A stretch of 64,000 bases of DNA. Source: Nitrospirota bacterium (GTDB lineage: Bacteria; Nitrospirota; UBA9217). Positions within the stretch are counted from its first letter, which is position 1. Each line of letters opens with the position of its first letter. The notes beneath the pieces were generated by a model. The model was given only the letters and a program-made list of their open reading frames with translations. It was not told the origin of the DNA and ran no database searches. Where the stretch lies: contig CAWFSF010000002.1 in assembly GCA_963818475.1 (NCBI GenBank), forward strand, positions 96,001 to 160,000. The letters run 5' to 3'. The translations under genes and the position numbers were made by a program. Shown piece by piece: positions 2,527 to 57,107 of this stretch.

Positions 2527-3390
2527 TCACCGCAGGGTCTCGATCAGGGTGAAGACAAAGATGGTGACACTGATGTAACCGTTCATGTTGAAGAAAGCCA
2601 TGTCGAGCTTCGAGAGGTCGTTCTCTTTTACCAGCGTATGTTCGTAGATGATGAGAAGCAGCGCAATAACGACTCCGGCATAATAGAACAGCCCCAGGGA
2701 ACACAAGAAGCCAAGCCAGAAAAGAGCCGCCATGGTGACGGCGTGCGACGCGCGCGAGATCCAGAGCGAGCGACGGACGCCGAATTGTTGAGGAATGGAG
2801 TGAAGGCCGGCCTTGACGTCGAACTCGCGGTCCTGCAGCGCATAGAGCACATCGAACCCCAGGAGCCAGAACAGGACCGCTGCGCCGAGCACGAGCGCGG
2901 GCCCTTCGATCCGGCCGGTGATCGCGATCCACGCGCCGATGGGAGCGAGGCTTATGGCGAGGCCGAGGAACGCATGCGACAGGAACGTGAACCGCTTGGT
3001 ATAGGAATAGAAGAACACGACCGCAAGCGCCACCGGCGAAAGATAAAAGCTGAGCGGGTTCAGCATATATGCCGCGATGATCAGGACTGCTGAGGAAACC
3101 AGGGTAAAGACCATCACCTGCAGCGGCGACACGAGCCCCTGCGGCAGGGCGCGTATTTTGGTGCGCGGGTTCTCGGCATCGAACGCACGGTCGGCCCAGC
3201 GGTTGAAGCCCATGGCAGCAGAACGCGCCCCGACCATGGCGACGGTGATCCAGAGGATCTGGCTCCCGGTCGGCAGTCCTTTGGCCGCGAGCAGCGCGCC
3301 GGTGAAGGCGAAGGGCAGCGCAAAGATGGTGTGTTCGAACTTGATCATCTCGAGGATGATCTTGATCTTGTTGAGCATGTCGGCAATCAC
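2527..3390 (-). CDS. UbiA-family polyprenyltransferase (4-hydroxybenzoate/menaquinone-pathway type)
   Basis: KFEHTIFALPF, NRWADRAFDAENPRT and YALQDREFD Asp-rich motifs; multiple TM helices. Confidence 0.88.
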   Translation of the reverse strand: MIADMLNKIKIILEMIKFEHTIFALPFAFTGALLAAKGLPTGSQILWITVAMVGARSAAMGFNRWADRAFDAENPRTKIRALPQGLVSPLQVMVFTLVSSAVLIIAAYMLNPLSFYLSPVALAVVFFYSYTKRFTFLSHAFLGLAISLAPIGAWIAITGRIEGPALVLGAAVLFWLLGFDVLYALQDREFDVKAGLHSIPQQFGVRRSLWISRASHAVTMAALFWLGFLCSLGLFYYAGVVIALLLIIYEHTLVKENDLSKLDMAFFNMNGYISVTIFVFTLIETLR

Positions 3391-3402: not shown

Positions 3403-3916
3403 TTAACCACGGAGACACGGAGGCACGGAGAAAACATAATTGCAGCTTTGTGATAAGAAGTCCGGCTAGAGGACCAGCCTCTTAATTCCTTCCTTGATGA
3501 GACGCGAATGAAAATTAAGGATCAAACCAACTTTCAAACCTGACAGCCTAAGATAGGTCAAAAGCTGAGCTTCATGGATAGGTATTATCTTCTCAACACA
3601 TTTAATTTCAATAACCACCTTGCCGGCAGCAACCACGTCCATTCGATAACCGCAATCGAGCGTTATGCCTTTATACTCCAGGGGCAAAGCCCTCTGTCTC
3701 TCGACATGCACGTTCTGCAGCTTTAATTCGTGGCAATAACACTCCTCATATGCTGACTCCAGCAGACCGGGACCGAGATGTCTATGGACTTCCATGGCAC
3801 AGGCTATAAGCTTTTCTGTCAACTCTTCCTGCTGCAGCATGATGGCGCCCCACCTTCTGAGGATCACTGGCTGCCGAGCATCGGCAGTCTCCGTGCCTCC
3901 GTGACTCCGTGGTTAA
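3403..3916. mobile_element. Putative element with 29-bp terminal inverted repeats enclosing a GxxExxY gene
   Basis: Left arm TTAACCACGGAGACACGGAGGCACGGAGA (3403-3431); right arm (3888-3916) is its reverse complement with one mismatch. Interior is lower in GC than the flanking genes. Confidence 0.6.
3466..3840 (-). CDS. GxxExxY protein (PD-(D/E)XK nuclease superfamily)
   Basis: GPGLLESAYE motif, YRMD...VIEIK, HEAQLLTYL, GLILNF...GIKRLV; 124 aa from ATG at 3840. Confidence 0.92.
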   Translation of the reverse strand: MLQQEELTEKLIACAMEVHRHLGPGLLESAYEECYCHELKLQNVHVERQRALPLEYKGITLDCGYRMDVVAAGKVVIEIKCVEKIIPIHEAQLLTYLRLSGLKVGLILNFHSRLIKEGIKRLVL

Positions 3917-3926
3917 TTGACTGTTT

Positions 3927-4821
3927 TTACTCGCTTGCCTCTTCCCCCACTCCTCGATCTTTTTCCTGATCTCCGGCATGGCCTTCTGCGTGGCTTCGAT
4001 CCCCGCCTGCATGCAGCGCTTCTTCTGGGTGAAATCGAGCATGGCCACGTCTGCCGACCTGCGGCGTGATGAGCACATCGGCCTCTTTTTTCTTGTACCG
4101 TACGTTCTCACTGAACATGATGTTCACGGCCTGGAGCATCACGTCGACGAGATTGGTGATATTGAAGTTCGCCACATTCTCGCTGATATCCACGGCGATC
4201 ACGATGTCCGCGCCTTTCTCGCGAGCAACAGCGATCGGGATATTGTCCATCACGCCGCCGTCAACGAGCAGCCTGCCCTGATGCTCCACGGGATTGAACA
4301 CGCCCGGAATAGCGCTGCTGGCGTGCACTGCCTTCGCCACCGAACCCCGGTCGAGCACGACGCGCGTGCCGCGGTTCAGGTCGGTGGCCACCGCGGCAAA
4401 GGGCAGCTTCAGGTTCTCGATATTCGGCGCGGTGATCTTCGTTCTCACGAACTCTTCGAGCTTGTCGCCCTTGGCCAGTACCCATGCCGGTAAAGGCGTT
4501 CATGATGCCGTAATCGAAAAGACTGTCCTTCTCAAGCGGGAACGCGGTCCATTCGAGCTCGAAGCTGTTCAGGTCACTGGCATAGATCGCGCCGATAAGG
4601 CTGCCTACGCTCGTGCCGATGATCATGTCGATCGGGATCTTCTCCTGCTCGAGCGCCCGGATCACGCCGACATGAGCGAATCCCCGCGCTGCCCCGCCGC
4701 CGAGCACCAGCGCTATCTTCGGCTTTGGCATCTCAACAGGGGGCGGCGGCGGCATTGAAACGCAGGAAACGAGCATGCCCATGGTTGTTATTATGAGTGA
4801 TATCCGTCTTATCTTGTTCAT
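3927..4821 (-). CDS. Patatin-like phospholipase lipoprotein (frameshifted near 4478 and 4060)
   Basis: Lipobox-like LVSC, GGGAARG, GTSVG nucleophile elbow and DGG motif, split over three frames. The 3' end is approximate. Confidence 0.8.
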
Positions 4822-4851: not shown

Positions 4852-4935
4852 TTACTTCTTACTTCTTACTTCTTACTTCTTACTTCTTACTTCTTACTTC
4901 TAACTTCTTACTTCTCACTTCTCACTTCTTACTTC
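4852..4935. repeat. Tandem 7-mer (TTACTTC) x12
   Basis: Twelve consecutive units, three with a single variant (TAACTTC, TCACTTC x2); the last unit contains the stop codon of the 4929..7541 gene. Confidence 0.95.
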
Positions 4936-7541
4936 TCACCCTTCTCCAGCAAAGCACCTACTTCCGCATACAGGTTCTTCACGATCCCGTCATAATCCCT
5001 GTCCCCCGGAAGGATCGGTTTGCCGAAGGATACCGTTACTTTTGCAGGCACCGGAACGCTTTTACCCGGCGCGAGCATTTCGTAGGTTCCCTTGATGGCA
5101 ACCGGGACGATCGGCACGTTCAGTTCTTTTGCAATGATGCCGACGCCTTTCTTGAACTCATGGAGCCTGTTGTCACGGGCCCGCATTCCTTCGGGAAAGA
5201 CACAGAGGACCTTGCCCCGGCGCAGCACATAGGCCGAGAGCTGGAGCGCATTGTAGAGCCGAGCGTCCATGTCCACCGGGATCACCTGGACCAGCTTCGC
5301 GAGCCGCGACGTGATCGGGCCGTCGAAGTAATCGCTGGCCCCCAGGAAGAAGGTCTGCGATCCGATCTTCCACGAAACCGCTGCCATGACCGACGGCGCA
5401 TCTGCATAGCTCGCATGGTTCGGGGCGATGATGAACGGCCCTTTCATCGGAAGGTTCCCTGATCCCCGGACCGAAAGCCGGCCATAGATTTTGAAGACGA
5501 TCTTCACGAAGAGCTTGATAACATAGCGGCCCATGTTCCAGACCGGCCCTGGCTCGAGGCTGAGGGTCTCTTTCACCTCGCCGGACGGGTCCTGGGCGAG
5601 GATCTCACCCCAGGACAAGCGCACCCGCGCGCCTGCTGCAGTCGGCCCCGCTGCAAGCATTTCCCGGACCCTGACGACCGCGTCCTTCACGGTAAAAACC
5701 TCGGAACCGAAGGACTCGGGCAGGCTGATGCCGAAGGTCTTCTCGATGCTCACCACGAGTTCCACACGCATGAGCGAATCGAGCCCAAGGTCGAGCTCAA
5801 GGTTGTCGTCGGGGACAATAGGTTTCTTAGCGGAAAAGGGCTCAAGGCAGGCAAGGAGCTTTTTCGCTTCAACCGTGTCGAAGAGGTCCGTATCGATCTC
5901 CGCAACGGGCTTCTCTGCCCGCTCTCCCTGTTCCCGATACAGGTCGGCGACCGCCTTCCGCCTGAGCTTGCCCAGCCGCGTTGCCGGAAGCGGGTCCTTG
6001 AAGATCTTGAGCCCGGTGATCCGTTTGTAGGGAGGAAGGTCTTTTGCCAGGTCTTCGATCTCGTAGGCAATGGTCTCGCGGGAGTTCGACAGGTTCATCT
6101 TGCGGAGGTATTCGAAATCGGGGACCACGGCAGCCTCGAGCCCGCGCTCGCCCTGCATGAGACAGATCTCCTTGATCTCCGGGACCTGCTTGTAGAATTT
6201 CTCGAGCTCTTCAGGAAAGATCTTCTTCCCCGTGGAGAGCACGATCATCTCTTTGGACCTGCCGGTTATGAAGAAGTATCCGTCCCGGTCGCGGTAGCCG
6301 AGGTCTCCTGAATAGAACCAGCCCTCCCTGAGCACCTCGGCGGTCTCAACCGGCTTGTTATAGTAGCCCTGCATCACGTTCGGCCCGCGGATCGCGATCT
6401 CTCCCTGGCCGTGCTCGTCGGGGTTCACGATCCTGACCTCAACGTCCGGCACGGGAATGCCGATGGATCCCGCCTTTTGTTTTTCCAGCGGATTGAACGT
6501 GGCTGCCGGGGACGTTTCGGTAAGGCCGTAGGCTTCAATGATGGTGAAGCCGAGGCGGGTCATGTCGATGAACACTTCGGGGTCGAGGCGGGCGCCGCCG
6601 CTCGTAAAGAACCTGAACGCCGGGCCGAATTTGGCGTGCACCTTGGCGAACAGCTTCTTTCCGATATTCACCTTCAGGTATCGGCGCAGCAGCCCGTTGA
6701 GGAGAAGCAGGAAGCTCACGATCCGGCGCACGACTAAAGGCTTTTTTCCTATCTCGTCGAAAATGGCGCGGCGAAGCCCGGCAAAGAACTGGGGAACGCC
6801 GAGCATGGCGTTCACGTTGGTCTCCTGCATACAGTGCATGATGTCCGGCCCCTTCAGGCTGTTCAGGTAGGTCACGGTCGTGCCCTGGGAAAGCGGCAGC
6901 ACAATGCAGGCCATGGACGGATAGGTGTGGTGCAGGGGAAGGATGCAGAGCACGTTGTCTTCGATCCGCAGAATGTCGAGCTTGATCAGGCTCTGCGCGT
7001 TCGACACCAGGTTGCCGTGCGAGAGCATGACTCCCTTGGGATCGCCGGTCGTGCCCGAGGTGTAGAGGAGCGCTGCCGGGTCGTCTGCTGACGGCGCTGA
7101 AGGCATCGCTGCATCGGGATGGGCCGTGAGCAGCGAGTGGAACGGCAGTCCTTCGCCGGGATCAAAGGAGAAGACCGGCTGATCGCCGCCCTCCGGCAAT
7201 TTCTCGCGGCATGCAGCGGACACGCAGATCGCTTTTGCGCCGGAGTTCCTGAGCAGCACCGCGACCTCTTTGTCCGTCAGCTGCGCGTCCATGGGCACGA
7301 TCACCGCTCCGAGCGCAACGACCGACAAATAGGCGAAGACCCACTCCAGCCGGTTCTCGGACAGGAGCGCGACCCGGTCGCCCTTTGCAATGCCCTGCTC
7401 CGCCAGCCCCTGGGCAGCTGAAGCCACGGCAGCAATAAGTTCGCTGTAGGAATAGCGCTGGTAGCGGTCGCCGACCTTCATCTGGATGGCGGTCTTATCA
7501 GGATAGCGCAGCGCCGTCTGTTGAATTCGGGACAGGATCAT
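4929..7541 (-). CDS. Long-chain acyl-CoA ligase / ACP / 1-acylglycerol-3-phosphate acyltransferase fusion (Aas-like)
   Basis: YTSGTTGDPKG and YGLTETSP AMP-binding motifs, LGLDSL phosphopantetheine site, NHASYAD and FPEG PlsC motifs. Confidence 0.9.
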   Translation of the reverse strand: MILSRIQQTALRYPDKTAIQMKVGDRYQRYSYSELIAAVASAAQGLAEQGIAKGDRVALLSENRLEWVFAYLSVVALGAVIVPMDAQLTDKEVAVLLRNSGAKAICVSAACREKLPEGGDQPVFSFDPGEGLPFHSLLTAHPDAAMPSAPSADDPAALLYTSGTTGDPKGVMLSHGNLVSNAQSLIKLDILRIEDNVLCILPLHHTYPSMACIVLPLSQGTTVTYLNSLKGPDIMHCMQETNVNAMLGVPQFFAGLRRAIFDEIGKKPLVVRRIVSFLLLLNGLLRRYLKVNIGKKLFAKVHAKFGPAFRFFTSGGARLDPEVFIDMTRLGFTIIEAYGLTETSPAATFNPLEKQKAGSIGIPVPDVEVRIVNPDEHGQGEIAIRGPNVMQGYYNKPVETAEVLREGWFYSGDLGYRDRDGYFFITGRSKEMIVLSTGKKIFPEELEKFYKQVPEIKEICLMQGERGLEAAVVPDFEYLRKMNLSNSRETIAYEIEDLAKDLPPYKRITGLKIFKDPLPATRLGKLRRKAVADLYREQGERAEKPVAEIDTDLFDTVEAKKLLACLEPFSAKKPIVPDDNLELDLGLDSLMRVELVVSIEKTFGISLPESFGSEVFTVKDAVVRVREMLAAGPTAAGARVRLSWGEILAQDPSGEVKETLSLEPGPVWNMGRYVIKLFVKIVFKIYGRLSVRGSGNLPMKGPFIIAPNHASYADAPSVMAAVSWKIGSQTFFLGASDYFDGPITSRLAKLVQVIPVDMDARLYNALQLSAYVLRRGKVLCVFPEGMRARDNRLHEFKKGVGIIAKELNVPIVPVAIKGTYEMLAPGKSVPVPAKVTVSFGKPILPGDRDYDGIVKNLYAEVGALLEKGEK

Positions 7542-8021: not shown

Positions 8022-8153
8022 ACCACGGAGTCACGGAGGCACGGAGAAATTCATTGCCATTATCTATAAGGATTGATGGTGTTGTAACAGTCTATTTTCC
8101 CTCTCTCGATGTCATACCGCTTCTCCCTCTCCGTGCCTCCCTGACTCCGTGGT
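8022..8153. repeat. Empty inverted-repeat element, CACGGAG type (26-bp arms)
   Basis: ACCACGGAGTCACGGAGGCACGGAGA ... TCTCCGTGCCTCCCTGACTCCGTGGT; arms nearly identical to those at 3403-3916. Confidence 0.9.
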
Positions 8154-12381: not shown

Positions 12382-12459
12382 ACCACAGAGGCACGGAGAG
12401 GGCCAAGAAGATCCATTATTTTTCACTTGTTCTTCTCTGTGCCTCAGTGTCTCCGTGGT
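12382..12459. repeat. Empty inverted-repeat element, CACAGAG/CACGGAG type
   Basis: ACCACAGAGGCACGGAG ... CTCTGTGCCTCAGTGTCTCCGTGGT. Confidence 0.8.
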
Positions 12460-39292: not shown

Positions 39293-39469
39293 TACCACGG
39301 AGACACGGAGGCACGGAGAAATGCCTTTTAAATAATAGGGATTTTCTCGCGTCTCTGCGCCTCAGCGGTTCAACTTGATTTATTGTTAGTTGTTAACCTA
39401 TCAATATCTACGTCCTTTGTATTGGGTTATACTGCAGCCTTCTCTCCGTGTCTCCGTGCCTCCGTGGTA
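39293..39469. repeat. Empty inverted-repeat element, CACGGAG type, with a nested orphan CGCAGAG-type arm (39345-39369)
   Basis: TACCACGGAGACACGGAGGCACGGAGA ... TCTCCGTGTCTCCGTGCCTCCGTGGTA; AT-rich interior. Confidence 0.9.
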
Positions 39470-50002: not shown

Positions 50003-50074
50003 TTACCACAGCGACACAGAGGCACAGAGAGAAGCGATCTGAAATCCTAATTTTTTCCTCTGTGTCTCTGTGGT
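50003..50074. repeat. Empty inverted-repeat element, CACAGAG type
   Basis: ACCACAGCGACACAGAGGCACAGAG ... CTCTGTGTCTCTGTGGT. Confidence 0.8.
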
Positions 50075-50616: not shown

Positions 50617-50664
50617 AAAACAAAAAACCGCCAAAGAGCTCATGAGAAATGATATCTTTGGCGG
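50617..50664 (-). terminator. Riboswitch expression-platform intrinsic terminator
   Basis: - strand CCGCCAAAGA...TCTTTGGCGG-TTTTTTGTTTT; the 5' arm is the 3' end of the aptamer. Confidence 0.85.
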
Positions 50665-50790
50665 CTCGACTGGCGTATAAAACAGCGACAGCTTCCCGGG
50701 TGAAATGGTACACTCGGATGCAAAGTCTGTTTTACGTAGCTTCGTGGCTCTGCGCCCCACGGTTTCCCGTGGTTTGCTCTGAGCAAAGTC
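50655..50790 (-). ncRNA. c-di-GMP-I (GEMM) class riboswitch, A20 variant (possible 3',3'-cGAMP sensor)
   Basis: - strand AGCAAACCACGG-GAAA-CCGTGGGGCGCAGAGCCACG...CAGTCGAGCCGCC, with P1 CTTTG/CAAAG. Confidence 0.85.
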
Positions 50791-56795: not shown

Positions 56796-57107
56796 ACCGC
56801 AGAGGACGCAGAGGAAGGCCAAATCCTTCACAATCCATTGACCATCCTCTTAATCCCTTCTTTCACATGCACGACATTGGAATTAGTGACGCAAACCGAG
56901 TGACTTCTTGCTCAGCTTAAGATATGAAAGGAGCTGTGCCTCGTGGATCGGTAGAATTCTTTCTACTTCTTTCAGTTCCACGCTCACAACATCTTCGACA
57001 ATACAACCAGCATCGATCTTCAAGCCATTTATTTTCCCCTGCATCCTCCGCAGTACTATGCCTTATTTCTCCTGCATATCTCTGTTTTCCTCTGTATCCT
57101 CTGCGGT
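56796..57107. mobile_element. Inverted-repeat element (CGCAGAGGA type) enclosing a decayed GxxExxY gene
   Basis: ACCGCAGAGGACGCAGAGGA ... TCCTCTGTATCCTCTGCGGT; AT-rich interior. Confidence 0.65.
56828..57029 (-). pseudogene. GxxExxY protein remnant (5'-truncated, internal deletion, frameshift)
   Basis: Manual translation NGLKIDAGCIVEDVVSVELKEVERILPIHEAQLLSYLKLSKKSLGL / NSNVVHVKEGIKRMVNGL* aligns with the C-terminal half of 3466..3840. Confidence 0.85.

Follow-up and report, generated by a model that had tools for sequence, protein, structure and literature searches.

A GxxExxY nuclease-fold gene between inverted 7-nt-unit arrays: a candidate cassette exchanged at operon junctions in Nitrospirota

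Between a patatin-like phospholipase gene and a UbiA/MqnP-like prenyltransferase gene of a Nitrospirota bacterium lies a small gene of the GxxExxY family, enclosed by inverted repeats (arms) that recur elsewhere without a gene. Do the gene and the arms belong together, and if so, by what route does such a unit persist and spread? A first-pass annotation of the 64,000-nt stretch of contig CAWFSF010000002.1 analyzed here (hereafter the window) had proposed a minimal mobile or selfish unit with full and empty copies, analogous to RAYT/REP or IS/MITE pairs. Here we follow up this proposal in the window, in its genome, and in related and distant bacteria.

The unit at the patatin-ubiA junction

The arms, 29 nt each and 97% complementary (28/29), are separated by a gap of 456 nt, and each consists of three CACGGAG units at 8-nt spacing, as the first-pass annotation had described (Table 1). 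A 25-nt arm pattern matched the window 8 times at up to two mismatches, compared with 0 matches in 100 shuffles, and a 17-nt pattern had 72 exact matches in the genome against none for its reversed control. The paired arms fold stably as a single strand (z -5.5, DNA parameters). No Rfam 15 family reached its gathering score over the cassette, the sole match in the window being a c-di-GMP-I riboswitch (RF01051, 49 bits) at 50657-50788 on the minus strand. The gene and both neighbors are co-oriented, which agrees with the initial description of the locus except that in this assembly frameshifts disrupt the upstream patatin gene. These frameshifts may be assembly errors, because one base at each of 4050, 4148 and 4478 is missing from contigs of related organisms; single-base frameshifts that may have the same origin likewise interrupt two GxxExxY paralogs (G000 C6:988573 and C1:224727). 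Further upstream, a tandem 7-nt array (TTACTTC and variants) lies at 4852-4940 between an acyl-CoA synthetase/acyltransferase gene and patatin, a junction that elsewhere holds a GxxExxY cassette (relative L032) or a different 7-mer array (G001).

Table 1. Coordinates of the unit, its neighbors and related elements in the window
Feature	Position	Strand	Remarks
UbiA/MqnP-like prenyltransferase gene	2527..3378	-	downstream host gene; homologous flank of cassette
Arm 3' of GxxExxY gene	3403..3431	+	three CACGGAG units, 8-nt spacing; outer end A/T-rich
GxxExxY nuclease-fold gene, 124 aa	3466..3840	-	intact; 46% GC vs 59% in neighbors
Mini-hairpin, 7 bp	3871..3887		in gene leader, immediately inside upstream arm; sequence and fold
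Arm 5' of GxxExxY gene	3888..3916	-	inverted copy of 3403..3431 (28/29); starts about 10 nt past patatin stop codon
Patatin-like phospholipase gene	3927..4821	-	upstream host gene; frameshifted in this assembly
Gene-less pair, CACGGAG family	8022..8153		80-nt interior; inverted-repeat and pattern search
Gene-less pair, CACGGAG family	12382..12459		78-nt size class
Gene-less pair, CACGGAG family	39293..39469		nested sister-family arm and traces of outer MITE-like frame
Degenerate gene-less pair, CACGGAG family	~50005..50074		CACAGAG units; pattern search
Decayed sister-family cassette	56796..57107	-	CGCAGAG arms, GxxExxY gene fragment; full cassette at same junction in congeneric genome

The 124-aa product is a member of the GxxExxY family, as the annotation had recognized: it scored 146 bits against TIGR04256 (cut-off 35) and 141 bits against PF13366 (PDDEXK_3; cut-off 22), a family classed as "unknown" in the accessible part of PMC3424549. 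It carries the family motif as G25-x-x-E28-x-x-Y31, and an alignment of 134 proteins shows conservation of 90% or more at L22, G23, G25, E28, Y31, D68, E78, K80, Q92 and Y96, among others. A structure model built with the alignment (pLDDT 96; folding the single sequence gave only pLDDT 37) predicts a PD-(D/E)XK fold with D68, E78 and K80 conserved, consistent with the superfamily to which the family had been assigned at first pass. The structures nearest to the model were Cas4 (Z 8.1, rmsd 4.4, 100 aligned), lambda exonuclease and Hjc, all weak matches, and a sequence search of solved structures with the protein returned nothing better than E 0.12. With the Cas4/RecB-type and Hjc nucleases (4ic1, 4r5q, 1gef) the model shares the core fold, the D...ExK motif and the QxxxY motif, the last of which we take to be the label of the RecB family, but the match is weak (top Foldseek E 3.5e-3) and the 134-protein alignment contains no conserved cysteine cluster. 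PF13366 was the only domain matched and the top structural matches were PD-(D/E)XK enzymes, so the statement that the unit contains no DDE or HUH transposase stands. Matches in a protein atlas were confined to PF13366 clusters; the phage sequences searched gave no match, and plasmids gave 8 records. Among the sequencing runs listed in a further search there was no RNA dataset, and the matches amounted to small shares only. At the patatin-ubiA junction dN/dS was about 0.03 (6 unsaturated of 36 pairs), showing strong purifying selection on a nuclease whose active-site motif, as read from the alignment, is intact. The conserved residues, the predicted fold and the low dN/dS together point to a maintained and probably active nuclease.

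Arm families and protein lineages across genomes

This genome contains nine near-full GxxExxY loci and two fragments. Arms bracket eight of the nine, each with its own distinct arm family, and the ninth has arm pairs downstream only. Seven arm families gave 410 hits, 399 of them intergenic, against 2 in a reversed control. Recent transposition of the full unit within the genome was rejected, the paralogs being just 30-42% identical. Outside this genome, a bracketing inverted repeat (score of at least 12) was present at 49 of 57 loci from several phyla (59 fetched, 2 excluded for short flanks) and in 2 of 103 shifted windows. In an enlarged set, 146 of 176 GxxExxY loci (83%; 181 genes found, 5 excluded for short flanks) had arms around them, compared with 17 of 1289 other small genes (1.3%) of this genome, as called by a crude gene caller of our own, which upholds the suspected tie between gene and arms. 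The nearest relatives of the gene in the window come from Nitrospirota genomes, and 151 genomes of this phylum, counted with their kin and hence not independent, divide into 22 with a full gene and the arm pattern, 9 with the gene only, 9 with arms only and 111 with neither. A search of the mostly open-access literature by name, accession and concept found no paper tying GxxExxY to repeats; the partnership is real and general, and apparently undescribed in print.

Among the loci listed, arm sequence tracks the protein tree across phyla. Using FastTree protein trees, here as for the unit consensus and the covariation below, we found that arm distance correlates with protein distance for pairs of loci at different sites (rho 0.38; 100 clear-arm loci, 0/999 permutations). 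Of 90 scorable cassettes, 78 have the same unit consensus in the left and the right arm; shuffling gave 11.5. Moreover, 18 CACAGAG cassettes occupy 14 unrelated sites and 14 CACGGAG cassettes occupy 9, and therefore the arms, not the site, go with the protein. These comparisons show, at the level of alignments and trees, that each protein lineage and its particular arm family stay paired from site to site and from phylum to phylum. Physical linkage alone could yield such co-variation, which counts against the mechanism that we favor below. Within the protein, residue positions 8, 9 and 12, in a candidate specificity patch of helix 1 (positions 8-12), covary with base 5 of the unit, the strongest case (position 12, V or I) being not significant at a median p of 0.125 over 7 independent pairs.

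Several loci depart from the common layout. In six Pseudomonadota loci (L044, L045, L060, L066, L072 and L083) the best inverted repeat has the opposite polarity, and a gene-less pair stands on either side instead of one enclosing pair. The upstream arm region of L033 is expanded to several tandem copies of a unit of about 60 nt, and in L101, L104 and G000 C6:1803908 the frame appears to begin within the upstream arm, such that the N-terminal residues would be encoded by arm sequence. Inverted 7-mer arrays also bracket other small genes (G000 C6:1705732-1706091 and other places), whose products presumably resemble four-helix-bundle proteins, and several 7-mer families are found as gene-less pairs too.

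Cassettes lie immediately past stop codons, at operon junctions, and the upstream neighbor is co-oriented in 127 of 146 callable loci. Together with the stable pairing of the arms, this would suit an element acting at the RNA level, in which pairing of the arms within the operon transcript would loop out or excise the gene, like ORF-bearing rRNA intervening sequences. However, background co-orientation is already 81% (3221/3976 gaps), and the dispersed pairs, almost all gene-less, bear little trace of a selected stem. In two of three families tested, partner arms within an element are no more alike than arms taken from separate elements (4.77 mismatches within against 4.58 between, n=26; 3.85 against 3.34, n=27); in the third (n=17) the arms of one element are concordant, but subfamilies are mixed. 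On the transcribed strand of dispersed pairs there was no G-U bias (35 vs 31; 28 vs 24; 6 vs 12). We therefore consider that the arm units look like conserved, putative binding sites and not like a selected RNA stem, and an RNA-level element seems to us very improbable.

Exchange of cassettes between lineages

The 181 GxxExxY genes fall into 96 site clusters, and therefore new sites must have been founded over time. Protein lineages nevertheless stay at one junction across a bacterial family, each as a single copy in this genome. Among 17 relatives in which patatin lies next to ubiA, the GxxExxY gene is present in 2, so the gene is not syntenically fixed at this junction. The other relatives have gene-less pairs of the CACGGAG or other families, 7-mer arrays, or almost nothing; in G003 the junction holds a deleted remnant with fused arms. 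In the congeneric genome G002 it is occupied by an Ssn-like GIY-YIG gene of 105 aa (L004:2421-2738, minus strand), associated with an NTS-like repeat that is one mismatch from the Neisseria NTS consensus; a remnant CACAGAG-type arm lies alongside.

Eight full cassettes at the patatin-ubiA junction represent two alleles, with CACGGAG or CACAGAG arms, and within a site every arm unit changes along with the allele of the protein. The loci L031 and L039 have flanks that are 94-100% identical per 100 nt (about 96% overall), while their cassettes are 67-72% identical, their genes 70%, and their arms CACGGAG and CACAGAG, respectively. Identity drops 20-25 nt before the patatin stop codon, and in relatives these last 20-25 nt accompany the cassette type; from this one junction we infer co-conversion of the flank. 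The flank tree joins L031 and L039 as sisters (100/100). A gene tree forced to keep them together was rejected (p-AU 4e-194), as was a flank tree grouped by allele (p-AU 1e-55 and 2e-46), the groups having been picked after the identities were seen. The same test gave a weaker result at a second site (p-AU 0.005 and 0.12). For the 11 pairs of loci in separate genomes whose flanks are at least 83% identical on both sides, the genes were 63-74% identical in 7 and 88-95% in 4. Part of the gap in the weaker pairs (e.g. L049/L053) may reflect faster synonymous change, because GxxExxY genes lack the codon bias of their hosts.

A comparison of this genome with about 850 kb of G003 gave a consistent picture. 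In 4 of 537 syntenic triplets the middle gene was at least 12 points below both neighbors, and 2 of these 4 were GxxExxY genes, of which 3 were tested. Junctions with arms in either genome fell below 60% identity in 35 of 59 cases, a count that contains presence/absence cases by construction, and plain junctions of at least 100 nt did so in 26 of 130. Arms occupied 30 junctions here only and 14 in G003 only, 20 were shared and 7 differed. Taken together, these alignments and trees, drawn mostly from metagenome assemblies, show that whole cassettes with their arms are exchanged between related lineages at a given junction, with breakpoints in or near the flanking genes. The swapping of alleles could alternatively reflect ordinary recombination under balancing selection, and the pattern attributed to exchange could reflect differential loss from an ancestral tandem pair. 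Elsewhere in G000 (C6:313700-320700), consecutive co-oriented genes, which we judged by eye from relatives' translations to be an NADH dehydrogenase operon, have arms or cassettes at several successive junctions, and relatives have full cassettes at five of them.

A free-standing homing endonuclease would account for part of these observations. Such an enzyme would cut the cassette-free allele, at the junction or at the end of a flanking gene, and repair would copy the cassette with co-conversion, the arms serving as self-binding or insulating sites and the full, degenerate and empty alleles being stages of a homing cycle. The tie of protein lineages to insertion sites, the coexistence of full, deleted and empty states at one junction and the stretch of patatin that goes with the cassette type all agree with this view. 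The seg/mob genes of T4-like phages are also promoter-less intergenic nuclease genes between conserved genes, with site-tied lineages and an exchange that co-converts the flanks (accessible part of PMC2988022), as would be the case here at the one junction noted above. Unlike those genes, the unit resides in a bacterial chromosome, has no separate DNA-binding domain, and has cognate arms that enclose the gene and also occur without it. Furthermore, close protein relatives at unrelated sites retain the same arms, full alleles are replaced by full alleles, which simple homing does not predict, and hundreds of gene-less arm pairs are left unexplained. We regard homing as unlikely.

Gene-less copies, related systems and a proposed mechanism

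Both gene-less pairs reported at first pass, at 8022-8153 and 39293-39469, are present, yet the list was incomplete: the window contains two more of the CACGGAG family, and arms of sister families as well (Table 1). In five congeneric genomes, the junction that holds the pair at 8022-8153 has other sequences, which in G003 include one partial arm. The length of gene-less pairs depends on the family, and their A/T-rich interiors among the copies listed are mostly unrelated within the CACGGAG family and near-identical in some copies of two sister families. At the arm ends, target-site duplications showed no clear excess over swapped flanks, a slight excess being possible (4-mers, 36/112 vs 29.1 +/- 4.0; 5-mers, 14 vs 10.4 +/- 2.7; 6-mers, 2 vs 3.7).

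Some gene-less copies arose in place. At C6:319053, a site with a full gene in relatives, the first and last parts of the gene appear by eye to be joined directly in the interior; the gene is sometimes deleted from between its arms. Where another genome has a full cassette, the matching junction here bears arms at 7 of 32 sites, the base rate being 7%. As a general rule, descent of every gene-less pair from a full cassette was rejected, since a profile-detectable gene remnant was present in just 6 of 291 arm-bearing gaps. A MITE-like frame motif lies on at least one side of 31 of 104 gene-less pairs, and of 8 of 11 in one family; it is absent from all full cassettes, and in the CACGGAG family 19 of 25 gene-less pairs lack the strict motif, several having traces of it by eye. 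The "empty" copies of the first-pass annotation thus exist, but their origin is mixed, partly deletion relics and partly passengers of MITE-like frames. A MITE-like frame starting CCTAACCCGG surrounds hairpins of several arm families at 31 places in G000 (e.g. C6:2183078 and C6:222190), and a second frame (CGTAAAAAGTC) likewise surrounds hairpins of different arm families; the interiors of these frames appear to be swapped. Whether dispersed copies match the arm variant of the resident cassette depends on the genome: G000, with a G-type cassette, has 53 G-type and 6 A-type hits; G011 has an A-type cassette, yet 14 G-type hits against 4 A-type; and G122 has 21 against 15. This too counts against the mechanism that we favor.

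A sibling repeat is known from Geobacter metallireducens under the name "Class 2 predicted global regulator binding sites", and IHF/HU was suggested as the possible ligand (Aklujkar et al. 2009, PMC2700814). It is present in strain GS-15 and reported to be absent from G. sulfurreducens. It lies between consecutive genes in all 43 rows of the table there and differs from the arms described here in its 9-nt spacing (four rows), against 8 nt, and in its outer end; the accessible part of that paper draws no link to a nuclease. By extension, the arms would be host sites, that is nucleoid-protein binding sites or transcription elements spread by IS-derived MITEs, and the nuclease would be cargo retained for a different task (defence, for example) and exchanged through ordinary recombination under balancing selection. 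Besides the IHF/HU proposal, the MITE-like frames, the scarcity of gene remnants and the nine arm-positive genomes that have no full gene speak for this. It leaves unexplained, however, why GxxExxY genes are bracketed so much more often than other small genes, why arm families are specific to protein lineages across phyla and why all units at one site switch jointly with the protein allele; nor does it fit the absence of the frame motif from full cassettes and, in its strict form, from most CACGGAG-family gene-less pairs. We hold it to be quite improbable.

The initial comparison with IS/MITE or RAYT pairs holds in part. A mobile unit with full and gene-less forms is supported by the existence of both forms, by the 96 site clusters and by a junction that is not fixed. 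IS-like transposition within this genome is not supported, given the single-copy, junction-tied lineages, the swapping of cassettes as alleles and the lack of a clear target-duplication excess, and, in contrast to IS/MITE pairs, no DDE transposase lies between the terminal repeats. In a RAYT/REPIN-like scheme, the protein itself would excise and insert arm pairs as non-autonomous elements, homologous flanks being unneeded. Congeneric genomes do differ in which junctions are occupied, and, as in the accessible account of REPINs and RAYTs (PMC3337134), there is one gene per repeat family, flanked by its own repeats in intergenic DNA, with inverted doublets of family-specific spacing or length and variable interiors that also occur near the cognate gene. 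REPIN-RAYT systems, described as mostly vertical, differ from cassettes that are exchanged between lineages. Here, moreover, no HUH/Y1 transposase is present, and the units are direct CACGGAG arrays that pair only arm to arm, not palindromic REPs. Near-identical dispersed copies lie mainly within MITE-like frames, and the congeneric genomes and related contigs searched yielded no clean excision product or joint and no precise, conspecific empty site. A bare 124-aa PD-(D/E)XK domain acts on DNA by hydrolysis and lacks the catalytic tyrosine or serine needed to rejoin ends. A RAYT-like mechanism thus appears improbable.

The unit works most like the Ssn/NTS systems, yet it is no member of them, because the fold differs: PF13366, a PD-(D/E)XK family, is the only domain match here, and not GIY-YIG (cd10448). 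As far as the accessible text of Chenal et al. 2025 (PMC11893778) goes, both comprise a small single-domain nuclease gene with repeats on both sides and dispersed genome-wide, both occur as many enzyme-repeat pairs with their own variants, and both have a link to recombination. The arms described here are non-palindromic arrays of three 7-nt units, not local hairpins, and cleavage of single-stranded DNA at the repeat is a feature of Ssn that is only presumed for GxxExxY.

Based on these comparisons, our preferred explanation, to which we give an even chance, is that the nuclease cuts at its own arms and that host recombination through the conserved flanking genes swaps the arm-bounded cassette. 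The unit would consist of a small PD-(D/E)XK nuclease gene and two inverted 7-nt-unit arrays belonging to that nuclease lineage. Its protein would bind the arrayed units and nick or cut there, most likely in single-stranded DNA, as Ssn does at NTS repeats; the cut would stimulate host homologous recombination via the conserved flanking genes, resulting in a swap of arm-bounded alleles and occasionally in the founding of a new site. Gene-less pairs would be non-autonomous alleles, namely deletion relics, swap-ins by the same route and passengers of IS-derived MITE frames. This model builds on observed association, selection, exchange and deletion, to which we infer recognition, cutting and a link from cutting to exchange. 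It may equally accommodate a benefit to the host, for instance control of incoming DNA, and pure selfishness. A broader version, which we find conceivable while leaning against it, would make GxxExxY a large family of repeat-specific PD-(D/E)XK nucleases, every member recognizing a 7-nt array of its own, probably in single-stranded form, and turning operon junctions into recombination slots where unrelated nuclease-plus-repeat cassettes (GxxExxY, Ssn-type GIY-YIG and four-helix-bundle units) replace one another, by neither transposition nor classical homing.

The arms supply a predicted substrate for each member of the widespread PF13366 family, whose function is therefore directly testable with oligonucleotides, and this genome offers eight enzyme-arm pairs for a comparison of cross-specificity. 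If the proposed mechanism is true, PD-(D/E)XK would be the third enzyme fold, after HUH and GIY-YIG, in the design of a nuclease with its own repeat, the plentiful intergenic repeats reported first from Geobacter, in 2009, would find a possible cause, and the family may provide a set of very small sequence-specific nucleases.
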